Below, piece by piece: positions 2,420 to 25,584 of a stretch of DNA of 64,000 nt; position 1 is the first letter of the stretch, and each line of letters opens with the position of its first letter. Made by a program: the position numbers and the translations under genes. The DNA comes from Parcubacteria bacterium C7867-008 (GTDB lineage: Bacteria; Patescibacteriota; Minisyncoccia; Phycocordibacterales; Phycocordibacteraceae). Below the pieces are notes generated by a model. That model saw only the letters and a list, made by a program, of their open reading frames with translations. It did not search any database and was not told where the DNA came from. The stretch spans positions 162,244 through 226,243 of the forward strand of contig LFCR01000004.1 of NCBI GenBank assembly GCA_001189215.1, given 5' to 3'.

Positions 2420-2962
2420 GTGAAGGATGCGTTGTATAACACCAAAGAAGGCCGGACCCGTCTGCTCGATGAACTGACGGCCATCGGCGCCAAACGTGTC
2501 GAACTCGAACGCAAGCGGGGTGAAAATCGTCAGCATACCGGAAGAGGCCATGCTGATGATGATGAGTGTGGTGACCTCGATAACCTGCTCATCTCCTGTA
2601 TCGCCAGACAGGGTGAGATCCAGGACATCTTCAGTGTGACCGGCGGCAATGTTGCTCCGCCGCCGACCAACACCCTGAGCGTCCAGCTCGGCAGTGTCGT
2701 CACGGTGAGGAGGTTTGCCAACGACAGCGACAACAAAGGGGAACTGTACACGTTCCAACTCGTTGGACACGGCGAGGGCATGGCGACCGGTAACGGAGCC
2801 GGCCTGTCTCCGAAGCTTCCGCTGATCAGCTACACTTGTCCGCAAGGTGAAGCGGTCCTGCGGAAAGAAGTTGGGGACGAAGTCGTCGTCAACGGAAAAG
2901 ATCAGGAGATTGTGGCCATACAGCTCCTGAACACCTATCAGGAGCTGCCAATGGCAGCCTGA
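2420..2962 (+). CDS. GreA/GreB-family (Rnk-like) transcription factor paralog, GC-rich foreign-looking cassette
   Basis: C-terminal pattern G..VTV...D....LVG..E....LSP...LISYTCPQGEAVLRKEVGDEVVV matches the GreA C-terminal FKBP-like domain. GTG start 7 nt after GGGGAG. GC visibly higher than neighbours. The in-frame ORF could start as early as 2318. Confidence 0.55.
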   Translation: MKDALYNTKEGRTRLLDELTAIGAKRVELERKRGENRQHTGRGHADDDECGDLDNLLISCIARQGEIQDIFSVTGGNVAPPPTNTLSVQLGSVVTVRRFANDSDNKGELYTFQLVGHGEGMATGNGAGLSPKLPLISYTCPQGEAVLRKEVGDEVVVNGKDQEIVAIQLLNTYQELPMAA

Positions 2963-2984
2963 ACCGCCCAGAAGGGCACTATGT

Positions 2985-3027
2985 GCGCCGCAGATTCGTT
3001 GGGGATCTGCGGCGTTCACTTTTTACT
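2985..3027 (+). terminator. intrinsic terminator after the GreA-like cassette
   Basis: Stem cgccgcagat/atctgcggcg followed by ttcacttttta. Confidence 0.65.
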
Positions 3028-3061
3028 CCATTCTTTATATAGCCTGTGCTATCGTAGATTC

Positions 3062-4015
3062 ATGAACGAAGACAAGCCCGTCCTCCTCTCAGGCATAAAG
3101 CCCACGGGAGAGATCCATATTGGTAACTATTTTGGTGCAATTAAACAGTTCGTTGAACTCTTGAATGATGATTCTCGTCAGGGCTTCGTCTTTATCGCGG
3201 ATTATCACGCACTTAACTTCATACAGGATGCTTCTGAAATGAAGCGTCTCACACGAGATCTTGCACGTGCATACATTGCGTGTGGTCTAGACCCTGAGAA
3301 GGTAGTGTTGTTTAAACAATCTGATGTATCTGCGCACACAGAACTTGCATGGATCTTCGATACCATCACTACCATGCCGTATCTCATGCGTGCACATGCA
3401 TTTAAAGACGCTGAAGCAAAGAATAAAGAAATCGTTGTTGGCACCTTCAACTACCCAATGCTTATGGCAGCAGACATTCTTCTATACGATGCATCGGTGG
3501 TACCGGTAGGGCAGGATCAGAAGCAGCATATTGAGTACGCACGTGATACTGCAGAGAAGTTCAATCGTATCTTTGGTGAGACATTTAGACTCCCTGAACC
3601 GCATATTCTTTCCGACGTTGCGGTAGTACCTGGTACTGATGGTCGCAAGATGAGTAAGAGTTATGGGAACACCATTCCGCTCTTTGCTTCTCGTGAACAA
3701 CTTGCCGACTGCGTCATGGGTATTGTTACAGACTCCGGCAATGATCGCCCTGAGAACGTATATGCCATTCATCGCCTCATTAAGACCGAGGAGGAACTCG
3801 CTCCTGTATACGAAGAACACAAAGGGAAGTACAAGGCATTGAAGGAAGCACTTATCGATGATCTTGATGCGTTCATTGCGCCTATGCGTGACCGTTTTGA
3901 ATCTCTAACAAACGATACAGAGATAGACGAGATCCTTGAAAAGGGTGCTCAGGTTGCGCGCAGCCACAGTGAGCATAAGATGGACACAGTCCGTCGAGCA
4001 ATCGGCGTCCGTTAG
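3062..4015 (+). CDS. trpS: tryptophanyl-tRNA synthetase
   Basis: PTGEIHIGNY and KMSKSYGN motifs. Start set at ATG 3062 (MNEDKPVLL) because the ORF-track start at 2981 lies inside the upstream terminator. Confidence 0.85.
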   Translation: MNEDKPVLLSGIKPTGEIHIGNYFGAIKQFVELLNDDSRQGFVFIADYHALNFIQDASEMKRLTRDLARAYIACGLDPEKVVLFKQSDVSAHTELAWIFDTITTMPYLMRAHAFKDAEAKNKEIVVGTFNYPMLMAADILLYDASVVPVGQDQKQHIEYARDTAEKFNRIFGETFRLPEPHILSDVAVVPGTDGRKMSKSYGNTIPLFASREQLADCVMGIVTDSGNDRPENVYAIHRLIKTEEELAPVYEEHKGKYKALKEALIDDLDAFIAPMRDRFESLTNDTEIDEILEKGAQVARSHSEHKMDTVRRAIGVR

Positions 4016-12406: not shown

Positions 12407-13573
12407 ATGAAAATCGTGTTTACGGGCGGAGGTACCGGCGGACATTTCTATCCTATTATTGCGGTCGCTGAAGCGGTCCAGAAGATTGTTGCAGAAGAAC
12501 GACTCCTTCCTCCGAGTCTCTATTACATCGCACCTACTCAATACGACGAGCAGGCACTCTTTGAGAACGATATTCAATTCATCAAGTGTCCAGCAGGGAA
12601 GGTTCGACGGTACTTCTCGGTATCCAATTTCACGGATGCGTTCGTAACACTCTCAGGTACCTTCAAGGCTTTTTTCACACTCCTTAAGATCTATCCGGAC
12701 GTGGTGTTCTCTAAGGGTGGTTTTGCTAGCGTACCGACCGTACTTGCGGCACACCTCCTACGAATCCCGATCATCATTCATGAGTCTGATTCAAAACCAG
12801 GGAAGGCAAACCTTCTTGCAGCAAAGTATGCCTATCGCATTGCAGTAACCTTCAACTCTTCGATACCAATGTTCCCCGAGAAGACTCGTGCAAACATCGC
12901 ACGTACGGGTATACCGATTCGTGCGGCGCTTGCTATGCCCCTACCGGCAGGAGCAGCACAAGAACTAGGACTGGACGCAAACATTCCAACTATATTCATC
13001 CTTGGAGGCTCAACCGGTTCAAAGAAGATTAATGAGGTCGTACTTCAAGCACTTCCTGACCTTACAAGCTTTGCTAATGTGATACACCAGACCGGTAAAG
13101 ATAACTTCACTGAGGTTGAAGCAACCGCAAAGGTTATTCTTGGTTCGAGCGAACATGCTAACCGATATCATGCGTTCCCATTCTTGGGACGTGATGCAAT
13201 GCGCATGGCAGCAGGTGCCGCATCACTCGTTGTGTCTCGTGCAGGCGCAACCTCTATCACAGAGATTTCTCTTTGGCACAAGCCATCTATTCTTATTCCA
13301 ATTCCTGAATCAGTGAGTCACGACCAGAGAACTAATGCATACGCGTATGCACACACTGGTGCTGCCGAGGTACTTGAGGAGCATAATATGACGCCACACA
13401 TTCTTGCGTCTGAAGCGCGTCGCATCACGAGTGATCAGAACGTATGGCAAACCATGGCAAATGCCAGTATGACCTTTGCCAATGCAGATGCTGCTGCCCT
13501 TATTGCTAAAGAACTCATTCGTATTGGTATGTCTCATAACCCCACGGAGGCAGCATCGGCTCCCATGGTATGA
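12407..13573 (+). CDS. murG: UDP-GlcNAc:undecaprenyl-PP-MurNAc-pentapeptide GlcNAc transferase
   Basis: MKIVFTGGGTGGHFYP N-terminus. Confidence 0.85.
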   Translation: MKIVFTGGGTGGHFYPIIAVAEAVQKIVAEERLLPPSLYYIAPTQYDEQALFENDIQFIKCPAGKVRRYFSVSNFTDAFVTLSGTFKAFFTLLKIYPDVVFSKGGFASVPTVLAAHLLRIPIIIHESDSKPGKANLLAAKYAYRIAVTFNSSIPMFPEKTRANIARTGIPIRAALAMPLPAGAAQELGLDANIPTIFILGGSTGSKKINEVVLQALPDLTSFANVIHQTGKDNFTEVEATAKVILGSSEHANRYHAFPFLGRDAMRMAAGAASLVVSRAGATSITEISLWHKPSILIPIPESVSHDQRTNAYAYAHTGAAEVLEEHNMTPHILASEARRITSDQNVWQTMANASMTFANADAAALIAKELIRIGMSHNPTEAASAPMV

Positions 13574-20600: not shown

Positions 20601-21845
20601 ATGACTCGTACTAGTATTTCTTCTGCAGCAGGCATCATGTTCTTTACGATTGCTGCTGTGGTATCGGCACCAACCGGTGCACAGGCAGCAACCAGCTGCA
20701 CATTCTCACGTGATCTCTCCGTTGGCACAGAAGGAGAAGATGTGCGCTGTCTTCAGAAGTATCTGAACGAGACAGGATTCACTATCGCTGCAAGTGGCGT
20801 AGGTTCTGCAGGTCATGAGACAACACAACTGAAAGATCTAACGGTGAAGGCACTCATGAAGTGGCAGGAAGCAAATAGTATTTCTCCGGCAACGGGTGCT
20901 TTTGGTCCAAAGTCACGTGCAGCATATGCAGCCCTCAAGGGTGGGGCACCTAATCCTCCCACCTCAACACCCGCTCCTTCTACCGGAGCTGATGCAGATG
21001 CCAAAGCCAAGCTTGAAACACTCCTTCTACAGCTAAAGGCGCTTCAAGCTGCACAGGGCAATACCGGAAACACGTCTACCACACCAAAACCAACCACGAG
21101 CTCAAACAGCACTAGTGTACAGCGTACGATTCTCGAGACACTTGAGATGATCGATGATGCAGAGGATCAGATAAGTGATACCGGAAGTGATACCGTCAAC
21201 GCTAAAGAAGAACTTGCTGATGCAAAGCAAGATCTCTTTGACGCTATTAAGGCGTATTTCCGTGGTGATACGGCACGTGCAGCAAAGGATGCAGAGAACG
21301 CACTAGATAATGCACGTGATGCCTTTAAGGATGCAGGGGGTAAGACTAAAGACGATAAGGTAGAGGGTCAGCTCGATGCGGCTCAAGATCTTATTGATAA
21401 CGTGGATGACGATATCGAAGACGCTGCAGATGACGGTAAAACTGTTACTGAGGCCCGTAAAATACTTAAAAAAGCACAGGCTACCCTTGATAAAGGATTC
21501 GAAGCCTTTGACGATGAGGACTTTGACAATGCGAAAGAGCTAGCTGCGGACGCAAAGGACTTTGCAAATGATGCAAAGGATGAAATCGGCAGTGGTTCAG
21601 GAGATAAGACAGATGCAAAGGATGAAATCCGCAATGCAAAGGATGCAATCAGCAACCTTGAAGATGATATTGATGAGGCAGAAAATGACGATGATGATAT
21701 CGGGGATGCCAAGTCATTCCTAAGCAAGGCAAAGAAAGCACTCACCAAGGCTGAGGATAGCTATGACGACGAAGAATATGACGACGCCATCGAATCTGCA
21801 CAGGATGCACAGGACTATGTCGATGATGCAGAAGACGAACTTTAG
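20601..21845 (+). CDS. secreted peptidoglycan-binding-domain protein with long acidic D/A/K-rich repetitive C-terminus
   Basis: Signal peptide. PG_binding_1-like motif (DVRCLQKYLNETGF...GAFGPKSRAAY). Tandem DAKDEI-type repeats. Confidence 0.6.
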   Translation: MTRTSISSAAGIMFFTIAAVVSAPTGAQAATSCTFSRDLSVGTEGEDVRCLQKYLNETGFTIAASGVGSAGHETTQLKDLTVKALMKWQEANSISPATGAFGPKSRAAYAALKGGAPNPPTSTPAPSTGADADAKAKLETLLLQLKALQAAQGNTGNTSTTPKPTTSSNSTSVQRTILETLEMIDDAEDQISDTGSDTVNAKEELADAKQDLFDAIKAYFRGDTARAAKDAENALDNARDAFKDAGGKTKDDKVEGQLDAAQDLIDNVDDDIEDAADDGKTVTEARKILKKAQATLDKGFEAFDDEDFDNAKELAADAKDFANDAKDEIGSGSGDKTDAKDEIRNAKDAISNLEDDIDEAENDDDDIGDAKSFLSKAKKALTKAEDSYDDEEYDDAIESAQDAQDYVDDAEDEL

Positions 21846-21859
21846 AGTATGCTGGACTA

Positions 21860-22069
21860 ATGCCAGAAGTGGTCCACAACGTGGTGAGTGAATACCGTGC
21901 TAAAACAAACGTAACCCAGGAAGAACTGGCAGTGGCTGTTGGCGTAAGTCGTCAGACAATCATTGCTATTGAGAGGGGTAACTACACACCATCGGTATTA
22001 CTTGCACTTAAGATCGCTGCATACTTTAAGAAACCGGTTGAAACCATATTCACTCTCCACCATGCCTAA
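21860..22069 (+). CDS. XRE-family helix-turn-helix transcriptional regulator
   Basis: TQEELAVAVGVSRQTIIAIERG is a Cro/C1 HTH. Confidence 0.75.
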   Translation: MPEVVHNVVSEYRAKTNVTQEELAVAVGVSRQTIIAIERGNYTPSVLLALKIAAYFKKPVETIFTLHHA

Positions 22070-22427
22070 TGCCATGACACTGCAACTAATTTCTAGCCTT
22101 GTTCTCGTTGCGCTCGGAATTATATTCCTCAATCCGCTTCATCTCTGGATGACGACTATGGCACATATGGTGATCCTCGGATTCATTGTTGCTGCCTTTG
22201 GTGTATTTGCTGCACTCTTACTGCGTGAGCAATCTGGCGACGAACGAGAAACCATACACCGTATGCTCGCAGGGCGTGCAGCCTTTCTAACGGGTGCCAC
22301 CATTCTGCTTGTTGGTATTGTCTGGCAGGCATTCACAGGCACAGTAGACGCATGGCTCATTCTTACGCTTTGCGGCATGGTTCTGGCGAAAACAGCCATT
22401 CGGTTCTACGGAGAACACCGAATGTAG
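22062..22427 (+). CDS. small membrane protein translationally coupled to the HTH gene
   Basis: ATGCCTAA start/stop overlap. Three or four TM helices. Confidence 0.55.
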   Translation: MPNAMTLQLISSLVLVALGIIFLNPLHLWMTTMAHMVILGFIVAAFGVFAALLLREQSGDERETIHRMLAGRAAFLTGATILLVGIVWQAFTGTVDAWLILTLCGMVLAKTAIRFYGEHRM

Positions 22428-22438
22428 CTGTGGATAAG

Positions 22439-22460
22439 CATGTAAAGTGCACTTTACATG
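22439..22460. promoter_or_regulatory. 22-bp perfect palindrome (putative operator) over a promoter-like AT box
   Basis: CATGTAAAGTGCACTTTACATG. Followed by tatcatatatt 45 nt before the Met-rich ORF. Confidence 0.5.
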
Positions 22461-22506
22461 TCGTGGTAAAGGGATATCATATATTCATTAGCTACTAAGC
22501 AATTTT

Positions 22507-22788
22507 ATGATGAACAAGCACGCAGTGTGGATCGCAGTGATTATTGTCGTTCTTCTAGCAGGTGGAGCAGCATACGCTATGAATGAGAACTCCAAGATGG
22601 AAAAGATGGAGGCAGACAAAATGATGATGGAAAACAAGGACGCAATGATGAAGGGCGACGATAAGATGATGCAGCCTGGTGACTCTATGATGAAGGCCGA
22701 AGACACCATGATGAAAGGAGAAGACAAAATGATGAAGGATGACGGCGCCATGATGAAGGCAGAGGGCGGTGCAATGATGGCTCAGTAA
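22507..22788 (+). CDS. Met-rich small exported protein (putative Cu(I)/Ag(I)-binding)
   Basis: N-terminal anchor then repeated D/E-K-MM-K units. 26 Met in 93 aa. Confidence 0.6.
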   Translation: MMNKHAVWIAVIIVVLLAGGAAYAMNENSKMEKMEADKMMMENKDAMMKGDDKMMQPGDSMMKAEDTMMKGEDKMMKDDGAMMKAEGGAMMAQ

Positions 22789-22792
22789 TACC

Positions 22793-24532
22793 ATGACGCT
22801 TCTCTTCATATCGTTTATAGCGGGGTTGCTTACGGTGCTCGCACCTTGCATTCTTCCGCTCTTGCCGGTAGTGGTGGGAAGCTCAGCAGCAGGGCGTAGC
22901 CGCCTCACCCCCTTCGTGGTGGTGGGGTCGCTCGCTGTATCCGTGATCTTATTCACGTATCTGCTTAAGGTATCAACTGCATTCATCACCATTCCTCCCT
23001 ACGTATGGACGGTGATATCAGGTGGTGTGCTGGTATTCTTCGGTCTTACCCTTGTGTTTCCTGCACTATGGGAAAAGATTCCTGGTGTTGCGAAACTGTC
23101 TATCGAAGGTAACAAGTTAGCAGGGAAGGGGTACCAGAAAAAGAGCTTTGCGGGAGACATTCTCATCGGTGCAGCTCTTGGCCCCGTATTCTCTAGCTGC
23201 TCGCCAACATACTTCGTAATTCTTGCATCAGTGCTTCCTGCAAGCTTCGCGCTCGGTTCTCTCTACTTACTCGCGTATGTTGTTGGTCTATCGATCTCGC
23301 TCCTTGCCATTGCAATGCTTGGACAACGGTTCGCCGATAAACTCACCGGTGTAGCGGATCCTAAGTCTTGGATAAAGCGAAGTATTGGTATCCTGTTCAT
23401 CGTATTAGGGGTCTTGATTATTTCAGGTCTCGAGAAAAAGATTGAGGCAGGTATTCTAACCGGTGGATTCTTCGATGTAACAAAGGTTGAGCAATACCTA
23501 CTTCAGTCTTCAGACGGTATGGGTATGGCCAACAATGGCTTGTCTATTGGCATGCTTACTGAAACAGAGAAGGCTATGAGATACCAGAAAGAACCTGAGC
23601 TGGTTACTCCTGACGCATACTTAAACACTAATGGTGAGGCAATTAATCTTGCACAGTACAAAGGCAAGAATGTTGTTCTTCTAGACTTCTGGACATACAG
23701 CTGTATTAATTGCCAGCGCACACTTCCGTACATCACTAAATGGTATGGGAAGTATAAGGATCAAGGGTTGGTGATCATTGGGGTGCATACTCCTGAGTTT
23801 GCCTTTGAGCATAAGCAGGAAAATGTGCAGAAAGCTCTAAAAGAATTTGGTATTGAGTATCCCGTGGTACTCGATAACGAATATAAGACCTGGAATGCCT
23901 TTGGAAATCGATTCTGGCCACATAAGTATCTGATCGATATTGATGGCTATATTGTCTATGACCACGCAGGGGAAGGGGAGTACGACGTGACAGAGAAGGC
24001 TATACAAGCTGCTCTTGCAGAACGAGCTACTCGTCTTGGTGAATCAACCGATGGTATTAGGTCAGATACTGTATCAATTGATACTCAAGATTCTGAAGCA
24101 CGTAGTCCAGAAACATACTTTGGTAGTGCACGTAATCAGTACCTCGGTAACGGGGCGCCGAAGAAGCAGGGGATACAGACACTCACCTTTCCCAAGAGTC
24201 TTGTACTGAATACACTCTACCTGCAGGGAACATGGAACTTCTCTTCTGAGTACGCAACAGCAGCAAATGAGGCTCGCATCCGATATACGTACAATGCGAA
24301 AGATATATACTTTGTCGCCAGCGCAGCACAACCGGTGACGATAACCGTCTTGCGTGACGGTGAACCAGTTGGACGTTTTGCTGGTAGCGATGTGGATCCG
24401 AAAACTTCCACAGTCACGGTTAGTCGAGATGGCTTATACAAACTCATCCATGACGACTCAGCGGGAGTACACACTATTGAGCTCATTATTAAAGGGGACG
24501 GCTTAAACGCATTCACCTTCACGTTTGGATAA
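22793..24532 (+). CDS. CcdA/DsbD-type transmembrane electron transporter fused to a TlpA/ResA-like thioredoxin domain and a C-terminal domain
   Basis: APCILPLLP (CcdA Cys motif). Thioredoxin LDFWTYSCINCQRTLP (CxxC). Confidence 0.75.
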   Translation: MTLLFISFIAGLLTVLAPCILPLLPVVVGSSAAGRSRLTPFVVVGSLAVSVILFTYLLKVSTAFITIPPYVWTVISGGVLVFFGLTLVFPALWEKIPGVAKLSIEGNKLAGKGYQKKSFAGDILIGAALGPVFSSCSPTYFVILASVLPASFALGSLYLLAYVVGLSISLLAIAMLGQRFADKLTGVADPKSWIKRSIGILFIVLGVLIISGLEKKIEAGILTGGFFDVTKVEQYLLQSSDGMGMANNGLSIGMLTETEKAMRYQKEPELVTPDAYLNTNGEAINLAQYKGKNVVLLDFWTYSCINCQRTLPYITKWYGKYKDQGLVIIGVHTPEFAFEHKQENVQKALKEFGIEYPVVLDNEYKTWNAFGNRFWPHKYLIDIDGYIVYDHAGEGEYDVTEKAIQAALAERATRLGESTDGIRSDTVSIDTQDSEARSPETYFGSARNQYLGNGAPKKQGIQTLTFPKSLVLNTLYLQGTWNFSSEYATAANEARIRYTYNAKDIYFVASAAQPVTITVLRDGEPVGRFAGSDVDPKTSTVTVSRDGLYKLIHDDSAGVHTIELIIKGDGLNAFTFTFG

Positions 24533-24602
24533 CACTGTTTGGTCCTGACTTTGTACACACCGCGCCTCAGGGCGTGGTGTGTACATGCTATAGAATGAGA
24601 CT

Positions 24603-24842
24603 ATGAAGAACACTAAACGGAAAGAAAACCGTACTGCAACGATGTTGAAGAGGTTGGTTTCCCCAAAGACTCCCCTTGGTGGCGCACTTGTGGGCGGGGC
24701 CTGCGTATTTCTATTATTTATATCGTATTCACTTATCAGTGGTCAGACACCCGAACAATCTCGTACCCGATTTGTTGAAAAGTATCAATCGGTTAATCAG
24801 ACCGCATACCGTGTTCCGGTGAAAGCAAAGAACACTCGCTAA
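24603..24842 (+). CDS. small membrane protein (79 aa)
   Basis: Single TM. Directly upstream of the pilin gene. Confidence 0.35.
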   Translation: MKNTKRKENRTATMLKRLVSPKTPLGGALVGGACVFLLFISYSLISGQTPEQSRTRFVEKYQSVNQTAYRVPVKAKNTR

Positions 24843-24846
24843 TTCT

Positions 24847-25584
24847 ATGAAAACAAAATTACAGACAAAGCGTGGCTTCACTCTCATTGAGTTGCTTGTG
24901 GTGATTGCAATCGTTTCCTTGGTATCCAGTCTTACCTACGCAAATATCGCTAGCGCTCGAACAAAGGGTCTTGACTCGCGCAAGAAGGCTGACCTTTCAT
25001 CGGTTCGTACTGCTATTCAATCCTATACGCTTGATAAAGGTCGTCCTCCGCATAACTATGACTGTTCTGGTGGCTGTGTTGTGAATGATTCACGCACAAC
25101 ACTCGCTATTGAAGATGCGCCTGGTACAGCACCAACAGAAAGTGGTAAGGCATATAACGCATCCATGCAGGAGCTTGTTGCTGGTAAGTATCTCCCTGCA
25201 GTTCCTCGTTCTCCTGGTGGAGCTGGCTACGCATACTACAACTATGGTGCAGGCACTGCTGCAGGTGCAATTATTGGAACCTCACTTGATGCAGAAAAAT
25301 CTAGTGCCACTGGATCAACTGGAACCTGCCGTCCATTCCCAGGTGGAAGCGGTGGTGATTCTGGCGGTGGAGAAATTGGTGGCGGAGGAGGCGGTCTACT
25401 TGATGTATTTGATCTTGGTGGGGGTGCTGGCCCTGGAGGTGTTGGTGTGTGGTTAAACTGCACCTATGTTGATGCTGGTGGCCTGACCTACGAGGCGCCG
25501 TGTCCTCCAGGATTTGATGGAGATACGCCAACCCTTTGTTCCGCAAGCGACTCAAAAGACTTCTGCTTCTGCAGTCCGTACTAA
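24847..25584 (+). CDS. type IV pilin / pseudopilin with prepilin N-terminal methylation motif
   Basis: KRGFTLIELLVVIAIVS. Gly/Cys-rich C-terminus. Confidence 0.8.
   Translation: MKTKLQTKRGFTLIELLVVIAIVSLVSSLTYANIASARTKGLDSRKKADLSSVRTAIQSYTLDKGRPPHNYDCSGGCVVNDSRTTLAIEDAPGTAPTESGKAYNASMQELVAGKYLPAVPRSPGGAGYAYYNYGAGTAAGAIIGTSLDAEKSSATGSTGTCRPFPGGSGGDSGGGEIGGGGGGLLDVFDLGGGAGPGGVGVWLNCTYVDAGGLTYEAPCPPGFDGDTPTLCSASDSKDFCFCSPY

Follow-up and report, generated by a model that had tools for sequence, protein, structure and literature searches.

The locus described here raises the question of why, in a Parcubacterium, a regulator gene coupled to a membrane-protein gene stands directly ahead of a perfect palindrome, an exported methionine-rich protein and a thiol reductase, and whether this arrangement serves copper handling or protection of the cell surface from oxidants. 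The window, i.e. the whole stretch of DNA analysed, is 64 kb long, and the main elements that a first-pass annotation had named in it are all present at or near the places where it had put them. The parts of the locus are of known kinds. It is rather probable that they form a module against envelope oxidative stress, conserved in Patescibacteria and equipped with a transcriptional switch of its own, in which an XRE repressor and a membrane sensor control a MrpX-like methionine sink and an outward-facing thiol reductase. Judged by sequence, the circuit of regulator pair, operator, Met-rich element and reductase appears to recur across many uncultured Patescibacteria.

The reductase is a fusion protein of 579 aa (22793-24532, + strand; named DipZ protein by NCBI, KND49669), and it is a DipZ by predicted architecture. 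Residues ~3-210 constitute a CcdA/DsbD transmembrane domain (Pfam DsbD_2 at aa 37-208, 28.5 bits, cutoff 24.9) with the membrane cysteines C19 (in LAPCILP) and C136 (in SSCSPTY), and aa 274-404 a TlpA/Redoxin domain (Redoxin 55.7 bits, AhpC-TSA 53.2 bits) with the motif C304-I-N-C307; the protein has these four cysteines only. A match to a ResA-subfamily NCBIfam model (1.8e-21) is under the whole-protein cutoff of that model. The fusion of a CcdA/DsbD conduit with a TlpA-like CxxC domain had been recognised in the first pass and is borne out, and the C-terminal region whose homology was to be checked (~330-579) consists of two pieces, the Redoxin/TlpA-like domain and, at aa 438-579, Thioredoxin_10 (PF17991, carbohydrate-binding-module-like; 116.7 bits, full length 1-142/142). 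The same series of CcdA TM, TlpA-like CxxC and Thioredoxin_10 domains makes up DipZ of Mycobacterium tuberculosis and M. bovis (Rv2874; PDB 2HYX, 5CYY), and the window protein matches the M. tuberculosis chains 2HYX_A and 5CYY_A over aa 268-527 with E=4e-62. In mycobacteria dipZ belongs to the SigK/RskA regulon and is thus also under a regulator paired with a membrane protein (PMC10540498); that pair is an ECF sigma/anti-sigma couple, whereas an XRE HTH and a 4-TM protein are found here, and the neighbours there are the MPB70/83 fasciclin proteins, whereas here the neighbour is a Met-rich protein and the host a Parcubacterium. In one related locus (L004) DipZ is paired with a fasciclin protein. 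The window's DipZ would carry cytoplasmic reducing power via C19/C136 to the outward CINC domain, which may restore oxidised thiols of the envelope and, where relatives encode them, feed extracytoplasmic thioredoxins and MsrA/MsrB.

The dipZ start codon lies 4 nt past the stop codon of the Met-rich gene, and a G+C-rich 15-bp hairpin (24552-24585, + strand) begins 20 nt past the DipZ stop codon. RNA folding of 24533-24610 gave -35.6 kcal/mol (15-pair stem, 4-nt loop), and the hairpin, which is without a U-tract, is the likely 3' end of the operon; it was missed by the consensus terminator scan because it has no T run. A search of Rfam near the locus matched no RNA family, which excludes a known riboswitch.

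The Met-rich gene (22507-22788, + strand) encodes an exported protein of 93 aa with 22 Met (24%), rather than the 26 first counted. Its N-terminus is a hydrophobic signal or anchor with a possible cleavage site between AYA and M, and in the mature part 29% of the residues are Met and 39% are charged, with eight MM doublets at a period of 7 residues. The ORF behaves as a coding sequence when compared with that of locus L001: differences are distributed 7/7/25 over the codon positions, and indels are in-frame units of 7 aa. A homology search with the protein gave no match at E<=0.001, which is expected because of its biased repeat, and conservation was therefore judged by position and composition. 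Standalone positional equivalents exist in four related loci (L001, L002, L024, L043), and 18 of the 23 anchored Trx proteins of relatives hold a Met-rich linker. The ORF, which might have turned out not to be conserved, is thus conserved as a compositional element, either standalone or as a Trx linker. MrpX of Azospira suillum, encoded with SigF/NrsF and YedY (MsrP), is likewise small, exported, and rich in Met (20%) and charged residues (44%); HOCl oxidises it, and its control lies with a membrane anti-sigma factor (PMC4436054). The likeness is one of composition and context, since the gene of each lies next to those of an envelope reductase system and next to a regulator gene that shares its transcript with a membrane-protein gene. 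The two systems differ in the reductase (the thiol conduit DipZ here, the molybdoenzyme MsrP/MsrQ there) and in the regulator (a repressor-type HTH here, a sigma factor there). By analogy with MrpX, a derepressed cell would export the Met-rich acidic polypeptide as a sacrificial oxidant sink. A screen of the 64-kb window for MsrA and MsrB found neither. Nothing here thus supports recycling of the protein after oxidation, and the sink would be sacrificial unless a distant gene serves it.

In the related loci, the genes downstream of the regulator pair are almost always those for an anchored Trx with CcdA/TlpA, or for DipZ. The genes msrA/msrB follow directly after DipZ in L005, L012 and L016, and L015 encodes a CcdA-MsrA-MsrB fusion with an anchored Trx ahead of it; the complete set of CcdA, extracytoplasmic Trx and MsrAB is thus present in L015, whereas the window has the fused CcdA-Trx only. 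No obvious signal peptides were seen in MsrA and MsrB of L012 and L005. Further companions are VKOR, DM13, FMN reductase and a disulfide oxidoreductase (Pyr_redox), and the co-occurrence of Msr, VKOR and flavin reductases upholds the description of the locus as an envelope redox stress module. In the pneumococcus, the CcdA-Etrx-MsrAB2 pathway passes electrons from CcdA to surface thioredoxin-fold proteins and on to surface MsrAB (PMC3914529). The relatives' loci share its parts (anchored Trx, CcdA and TlpA-like proteins, adjacent msrA/msrB, the L015 fusion); the window differs from the Streptococcus pneumoniae pathway in its fused CcdA-Trx, its lack of Msr and its regulation, and the Met-rich element is without a described pneumococcal counterpart. 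A literature search combining Patescibacteria, thioredoxin and Msr found no paper.

In most relatives the Met-rich stretch links a membrane anchor to a WCPxC thioredoxin domain, a position that would also suit a flexible, hydrophobic-faced client-binding arm or a wall-spanning spacer, helping envelope thiol reductases to catch unfolded substrates and acting as no redox sink; the standalone 93-aa protein would then be a remnant or accessory. The heptad MM doublets might place a Met stripe on one helix face, as such an arm would have, and the missing Msr near the window's copy is in line with it. A passive spacer, however, could do without so many Mets, yet their proportion is kept as the remaining sequence drifts. 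Standalone versions, moreover, arose in at least two lineages and kept all their Mets, and several relatives have a linked or fused Msr. A role as arm or spacer is considered improbable, and the Met-rich protein continues to be treated here as a sink.

Met-rich stretches of several known proteins bind Cu(I), among them those of CopC, CusF, PcoE/SilE and Ctr1, and the 93-aa protein had at first been read as Cu(I)/Ag(I)-binding. In a copper/silver module, it would sequester Cu(I)/Ag(I), DipZ would mend copper-made non-native disulfides in the manner of the Cu-induced Salmonella ScsB/C/D, and the membrane partner would sense the metal. The outer turn of the window's membrane partner holds H27, W29, M30 and M33, as a metal sensor might; H27 and M33, however, are not family-wide, and only P25 and M30 are conserved. 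The Salmonella ScsABCD system (PMC10907172), likewise an inducible envelope stress operon of a DsbD-superfamily reductase and thioredoxin-fold partners, ties DsbD-type reductases to copper stress, and another report (PMC9302797) describes periplasmic Met as oxidised by copper stress itself. Scs is induced by copper via CpxR/A, and ScsB/ScsC bind Cu+, whereas no copper link was found here. The metal-binding motif analysis recommended in the first pass gave one MxM, one MxxM, no His and no Cys in the mature Met-rich region, where the Mets are adjacent MM doublets on a heptad rather than MxM/MxxM sites, and the 18 Met-rich Trx linkers follow the same pattern. Genes for a P1B-ATPase, CopZ, CsoR/CopY, cupredoxin, CopC/D or SCO were found neither in the window nor among the annotated neighbours in 52 related loci, and the companion genes are those for Msr, VKOR and flavin reductases. 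The Cu(I)/Ag(I) reading of the protein was not sustained, and a copper/silver module is unlikely; the function is most likely protection of the cell surface from oxidants rather than from copper.

The perfect 22-bp palindrome CATGTAAAGTGCACTTTACATG that had been reported ahead of the Met-rich gene was found at 22439-22460. It is single-copy in the 64-kb window with up to three mismatches allowed, and none of 100 shuffles gave a match; a search for a second operator copy within three mismatches found only one chance-level match, at 13094. Its conserved core (22440-22459) is a 20-bp dyad, aTGTAAAG-N4-CTT(T/G)ACAt, present in the window in the CTTTACAt version. Far from being absent from orthologous promoters, the core was found in 50 instances (44 distinct) in 304 kb from 53 related loci, where ~0.1 would be expected by chance, and the dedicated operator that had been proposed is in this sense conserved. 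All five DipZ-anchored loci whose HTH pair is intact have it, as against none of the seven that lack such a pair (Fisher p=0.0013), and 35 of the 40 loci fetched only via the membrane partner have at least one site within one mismatch. Core sites are always located at the XRE HTH and 4-TM pair or ahead of its targets; where gene order is permuted, as in one distant subgroup, the operator still stands ahead of the Met-rich Trx gene. In many loci a second copy precedes the HTH start codon by 45-60 nt, a position consistent with autoregulation; this HTH-side copy is absent from the window and from L001. By sequence comparison, the dyad co-occurs strictly with the HTH gene, autoregulatory positions included. 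The left arm TGTAAAG shows no more variation than the right, of which alone the -35 hexamer is part, and the central 4 nt vary freely; these features point to a dimeric DNA-binding protein. Boxes of the Rex and CRP/FNR types have a half-site spacing unlike that of the dyad and were set aside as its identity, the motif tracking the local HTH gene.

The palindrome might instead act mainly as a hairpin and not as a protein operator: in RNA it would terminate or stabilise the HTH-membrane transcript at its 3' end, in DNA it would form a cruciform. It lies 3-141 nt past the stop codon of the membrane gene, folds as RNA at -11.6 kcal/mol, and has arms extended by 7-10 complementary, non-conserved bases in L010, L012, L033 and L044; in L012 the A and T tracts that flank it recall a bidirectional terminator. 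The 7+7 core, however, is invariant even between loci with only 28-50% identity in their proteins, a constancy that a stem does not need; the stem is rich in A+T, and a U-tract is lacking in most copies. Copies are also found ahead of the HTH gene and of the Trx genes of permuted loci, where no transcript ends, and a spacing of 16-17 nt always separates the right arm from a -10 hexamer. As an intrinsic terminator the window's palindrome was rejected, its A+T-rich stem being followed by TCGTGG and the terminator scan giving no report. The hairpin explanation is very improbable, and the palindrome is taken in what follows as a protein-binding operator.

The candidate to bind it is encoded immediately upstream. 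The XRE-family HTH regulator of 69 aa (21860-22069, + strand; KND49666, named putative transcriptional regulator by NCBI) has a Cro/C1-type domain (Pfam HTH_3, PF01381, 50.7 bits, cutoff 23), and the ATG of the membrane protein of 121 aa with four TM helices (22062-22427, + strand) overlaps its stop codon, in agreement with the coupled pair first described. The recognition-helix region [ST]RQT[IV]I[AS]IEKGNY.PS is invariant in all related loci, as is the operator. The membrane-partner family comprises 445 representatives, nearly all of ~120 aa, with D60-E61-R62 invariant and P25, M30, R72, G78, W98, M106 and K110 at least 90% conserved. Pfam and NCBIfam searches with the partner gave nothing above threshold, only noise (Bax1-I, DUF2157, SdpI). 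Its AF2 model is a 4-helix bundle (pLDDT 87.6), for which Foldseek against the PDB returned generic or de novo 4-helix bundles only and no match at E<=0.001. The DER motif is predicted to be on the cytoplasmic face, and the conserved NPxxxWM turn and W98 on the outer face. The pair is linked to the module in ~45 loci, permuted gene orders included, which supports its functional membership in the redox module on genomic grounds. It is proposed that the HTH protein is the operator-binding repressor and the 4-TM partner a sensor or anti-repressor, which may perceive an extracytoplasmic signal and lift repression by analogy with SdpI/SdpR, NrsF/SigF and RskA/SigK. In the autoregulated SdpR/SdpI system of Bacillus subtilis, the gene of a DNA-binding regulator is transcribed together with that of a small polytopic membrane protein, by which the availability of the regulator is controlled. 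The resemblance is one of logic, an analogy only: SdpR is of the ArsR type, SdpI is an unrelated 6-TM immunity protein, and Pfam SdpI matches the membrane partner at the noise level (E=0.93), with no homology. An XRE oxidative-stress regulator of S. mutans (PMC13532258) was considered as being of the same kind and set aside, having 136 aa and no membrane partner.

The palindrome had been placed over a -10-like box; instead, it overlaps the -35 hexamer of a predicted sigma-70-type promoter (22453-22480, + strand), which is TTTACA (22453-22458) in the right arm, and the -10 hexamer TATCAT (22475-22480) lies downstream. With a spacer of 16 nt and 10 of 12 consensus matches, this is the best promoter in the region, and the geometry of -35, 16-17 nt and -10 is repeated at nearly all operator sites of the related loci. 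By sequence comparison, the 20-bp dyad covers the predicted -35 of the promoter of the Met-rich gene and dipZ, and a dimer of the adjacent HTH protein may bind it, block the -35 and repress. The HTH protein could also be an activator or dual regulator here, the weak TTTACA needing a bound dimer and/or a factor at the TTATCCACA box. The -35 is this weaker hexamer at 20 of 24 target-side sites and the consensus TTGACA at 12 of 13 HTH-side sites, an extra conserved element stands at about -50 to -60 of target promoters only, and RskA is reported as a dual activator-inhibitor (PMC10540498), so that simple sequestration models can be wrong. Against activation, the dyad is centred at about -38.5, and every one of the six -35 bases falls within its right half-site, a geometry in favour of occluding sigma region 4. 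XRE proteins of this small, single-domain type usually repress when their site overlaps the -35. Activation is considered distinctly unlikely, and repression is the preferred mode.

The regulator pair, the operator and the adjacent DnaA-box-like element appear to be undescribed so far. A speculative and rather doubtful extension is that the HTH protein and its 4-TM partner are an undescribed one-step transmembrane signalling system, widespread in Patescibacteria, whose oxidant sensor would be the nearly invariant, outward-facing M30 of the NPxxxWM turn. The thioredoxin/Msr pathway that the system controls would reset this residue and so close a feedback loop, and the target promoter would be co-regulated via the conserved DnaA-box-like site; if true, the candidate phyla radiation would gain one of its first regulons defined at operator level. 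To our knowledge, almost nothing is known of transcriptional regulation in these Patescibacteria, most of which cannot be cultured, and the locus yields a regulator pair, a 20-bp operator, a promoter geometry and a small coherent regulon that are testable in vitro or in a heterologous host. As far as we know, Patescibacteria are generally without cytochromes c, and the module offers a reason why such organisms retain a CcdA/DipZ reductant conduit. It would also extend the sacrificial methionine idea of MrpX from Proteobacteria to a distant phylum, of which the Met-rich linkers inside anchored thioredoxins would be a new form, and it makes the 4-TM family, for which no Pfam model exists, a candidate envelope stress sensor.

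The DnaA-box-like element is left unaccounted for by the model of a repressor and a sink. At 22429-22437, 1 nt upstream of the palindrome, the - strand carries a perfect match to the DnaA-box consensus TTATCCACA (+ strand reading TGTGGATAA), and the site is a candidate DnaA box by its 9-mer sequence. Such 9-mers are neither clustered nor enriched in the window overall, and a general genome feature was rejected (17 found, 14.4 expected). None of the 13 HTH-side operators has such a box, whereas one with at most one mismatch stands 2-9 nt upstream of 17 of the 24 target-side operators, in either orientation, against a background of 1.1% of 45-nt windows.

The palindrome-controlled operon described in the first-pass annotation is real, and the case for it extends beyond the two points on which that annotation had staked it, the recurrence of the palindrome in orthologous promoters and the conservation of the Met-rich ORF. 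Sequence reading and the ORF listing place five closely spaced genes on the + strand in the region 20800-25200 of the window. The first (20601-21845) encodes a PG_binding_1/acidic-repeat protein of 414 aa, in which a signal peptide and a PG_binding_1 domain are combined with an extended repeat region rich in Asp, Ala and Lys. The XRE-type HTH regulator (69 aa, 21860-22069) begins 14 nt past the stop codon of this gene, and its own stop codon is overlapped by the ATG of a membrane protein of 121 aa (22062-22427), its membrane partner. After a gap of 79 nt follows the gene of the Met-rich protein (93 aa, 22507-22788) and, 4 nt beyond it, that of DipZ (579 aa, 22793-24532), with a G+C-rich hairpin of 15 bp at 24552-24585, 3' of the latter. 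The NCBI names for the proteins of the locus are 'putative transcriptional regulator', 'hypothetical protein' and 'DipZ protein'. Just 3' of the operon, at 24847-25584, lies the gene of a type IV pilin-like protein whose N-terminus has a methylation motif (N_methyl, 33.3 bits) and whose C-terminal region is Gly-rich.

The perfect palindrome upstream of the Met-rich gene, CATGTAAAGTGCACTTTACATG, is located at 22439-22460. It is the single such site in the window even at ≤3 mismatches, and 0/100 shuffles gave a match. It had been placed over a -10 box; instead, the best promoter-like site of the region takes its -35 hexamer from the right arm of the palindrome, TTTACA (22453-22458), and has the -10-like TATCAT 16 nt downstream. 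Among 12 related loci retrieved via DipZ, exactly one copy of TGTAAAG-N4-CTTTACA follows the membrane gene, ahead of the next one, in all five that have an intact HTH pair (regulator plus membrane partner), vs 0/7 of those lacking the pair (Fisher p=0.0013). A second set, free of dependence on DipZ, comprised 40 more loci retrieved via the membrane partner alone (28-56% identity), and at least one site with ≤1 mismatch is present in 35 of them. This operator was found in a total of 50 instances (44 distinct) across 304 kb, vs about 0.1 expected by chance, with the consensus a-TGTAAAG-t..a-CTT(T/G)ACA-t. At nearly all sites a -10-like hexamer lies 16-17 nt beyond TTKACA. Conservation of the left arm equals that of the right (43-44/44 at most positions), while the central bases vary. 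Since sigma-70 recognition accounts for the right arm only, the equal conservation of the left arm argues for a dimeric DNA-binding protein at the operator.

The parsimonious candidate for this protein is the local HTH regulator, because the motif tracks its gene and because of a second, HTH-side operator copy, an invariant recognition helix and a group of permuted loci. This second copy is found in many loci, 45-60 nt ahead of the HTH start codon and usually with the consensus TTGACA as its arm; such an arrangement is typical of repressors that control their own gene. All loci share an unchanged recognition-helix region, [ST]RQT[IV]I[AS]IEKGNY.PS, in keeping with the invariance of the half-sites. 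In a distant subgroup (L046/48, L050-52) the order is operator, Met-rich thioredoxin (Trx), CcdA, TlpA, HTH and membrane gene, so the operator still stands in front of the Trx gene. The HTH-side copy is absent from the window and from its closest relative, L001. Because of this absence and the spacing of only 14 nt, the HTH gene may in this genome be co-transcribed with the upstream PG_binding_1 gene. The dyad centre is at about -38.5 and the right half-site coincides with the -35 hexamer, for which reason an HTH dimer would most likely repress by occlusion of the -35 region.

An adjacent DnaA-box-like element, the TGTGGATAA box, gives the perfect DnaA-box consensus TTATCCACA on the - strand at 22429-22437, 1 nt upstream of the palindrome. 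The TTATCCACA box is present in the same position in L002, L010, L012, L023, L026, L035-L037, L039, L041, L051 and other related loci. Allowing ≤1 mismatch, such a box lies, in either orientation, 2-9 nt upstream of 17 of the 24 target-side operators (those before Met-rich, Trx or DipZ genes) and at 0/13 HTH-side ones, the background rate being 1.1%; no other enrichment of these 9-mers was detected in the window. The element could be an activator site, bound by DnaA or another factor, because the target-side -35 hexamers are mostly the weaker TTTACA.

The membrane partner matched no Pfam or NCBIfam family. A full-library search gave 445 cluster representatives, almost all of about 120 aa. Across 40 diverse members D60-E61-R62 is invariant, and P25, M30, R72, G78, W98, M106 and K110 are ≥90% conserved. 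The AF2 model is a four-helix bundle (pLDDT 87.6; helices 2-23, 32-54, 62-92 and 97-120), and a fold search with it matched only generic helical bundles. The DER motif is on the face bearing most Lys/Arg, which from the model we infer to be cytoplasmic; an NPxxxWM turn and W98 are on the opposite, outer face. The His and second Met of this turn in the window protein are not conserved, which weakens a metal-site reading. A role of the single outward-facing Met as an oxidant sensor is appealing but speculative.

The Met-rich protein contains 22 Met, rather than the 26 originally counted. Its N-terminus forms a hydrophobic signal or anchor, with a putative signal-peptidase site AYA|M. In the mature protein Met makes up 29% of the residues and charged residues 39%, and 8 MM doublets recur on a 7-residue period. 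No homologue was detected by sequence search; the ORF is conserved as an element, by slot and composition, rather than as a sequence family. Standalone anchored Met-rich proteins occupy the same slot in L001 (92 aa, 79% identical), L002 (73 aa), L024 (85 aa) and L043 (75 aa). In other loci its place is taken by a WCPxC thioredoxin anchored in the membrane. Among 23 distinct proteins of this type, 18 have a Met-rich linker, in which Met accounts for 12-25%, MM doublets occur and His and Cys are all but absent. Between the window and L001 the Met-rich genes differ 7/7/25 by codon position, every Met is kept, and indels are whole in-frame 7-residue units; from this pattern the ORF is judged a real gene, selected for its methionines.

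The 579-aa protein is DipZ by its sequence, a known family under which it is already annotated. The proposed fusion of CcdA to a TlpA-like thioredoxin was borne out: Pfam assigns a DsbD/CcdA transmembrane domain, a Redoxin/TlpA-like domain (aa 274-404) and, in the C-terminal part, a full-length Thioredoxin_10 domain (aa 438-579, 116.7 bits), and the solved C-terminal domains of Mycobacterium tuberculosis DipZ (2HYX, 5CYY) match with E=4e-62. It has exactly four Cys, C19 and C136 in the membrane domain and the pair C304-I-N-C307.

The Met-rich protein had been read as Cu(I)/Ag(I)-binding and the locus as a copper/redox module. DsbD-type reductases can be copper-linked, as in Scs (PMC10907172), but a copper-linked module is improbable here: the Met-rich protein lacks His and Cys and has a single MxM and a single MxxM, the window shows no P1B-ATPase or CopZ-type signature, and no copper families are among the annotated neighbours in 52 related loci. 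The copper reading failed every test applied; the redox and envelope part of the label stands, and the assigned function should change to envelope oxidant defence, by a methionine sink plus a thiol reductase. In relatives, DipZ is followed by msrB (L005) or by msrA and msrB (L012/L016). One 613-aa ORF (L015:4491-6332) fuses a CcdA/DsbD transmembrane domain, MsrA and MsrB, and has the operator and an anchored thioredoxin rich in Met upstream of it; as predicted from these domains, it would be a membrane-tethered, self-fed extracytoplasmic Met-sulfoxide reductase. VKOR, a DM13 electron-transfer protein and an FMN reductase also occur as companions, as does, in the distant subgroup, a fusion of a pyridine-nucleotide disulfide oxidoreductase with a VTT/DedA membrane domain (689 aa, L046:3863-5932, also in L047 and L048, directly after the membrane partner). 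No Msr genes were found in the 64-kb window, a real weakness of the oxidant model. By analogy, that model fits three precedents. In Azospira suillum the exported MrpX (Met 20%, charged residues 44%) is a sacrificial target of oxidation by hypochlorite, and NrsF, an anti-sigma factor in the membrane, controls it (PMC4436054). In the pneumococcus, surface methionine is repaired by the CcdA-Etrx-MsrAB2 pathway (PMC3914529), and mycobacterial dipZ is one of the few genes under SigK and its anti-sigma factor RskA (PMC10540498). The effector parts are thus of known kinds (DipZ, MrpX-like, CcdA-Trx-Msr). The literature searchable here seems to hold no description of the regulator pair (XRE plus four-TM protein), of its operator and promoter architecture or of the Met-rich thioredoxin linkers.

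Several features of single loci were also recorded. In L004 (2022-5127), where the HTH pair is missing, a MarR-family regulator and a PG_binding_1/fasciclin-domain protein stand upstream of DipZ. This echoes mycobacterial mpb83-dipZ-mpb70, MPB70/83 being fasciclin proteins. VKOR-family (DsbB-like) genes lie near DipZ at L005:2961-3350 and L006:8155-8616, so that envelope functions for making and for reducing disulfides are found together. A stretch of 39 nt that starts shortly before the -10 box and runs to the start codon (22468-22506 in the window, L001:3677-3715) is 100% identical between the two, while the coding sequence on either side shows many synonymous differences, so the short 5' leader may be under extra constraint. 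At L010:3947-3978, L012:3003-3036, L033 (~3812-3847) and L044 (~3099-3136) the operator arms are lengthened by 7-10 complementary, non-conserved bases, which suggests an added hairpin function in those few genomes; in L012, A and T tracts flank the palindrome, much as in a bidirectional terminator. Operator-like sites (1 mismatch each) occur at the atypical positions L029:1839 and L036:830, 400-550 nt upstream of the HTH gene. The former precedes the gene for a 100-aa exported protein of unassigned role, a possible extra regulon member. In L003 an apparent frameshift after RQTI joins the HTH and membrane genes into a single ORF of 189 aa (2637-3206); an operator copy lies upstream at 2591, and the target-side operator is replaced by another AT-rich palindrome, ATCATTAAATTTAATCAT. 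This contig is binned as Gammaproteobacteria, probably by mis-binning.
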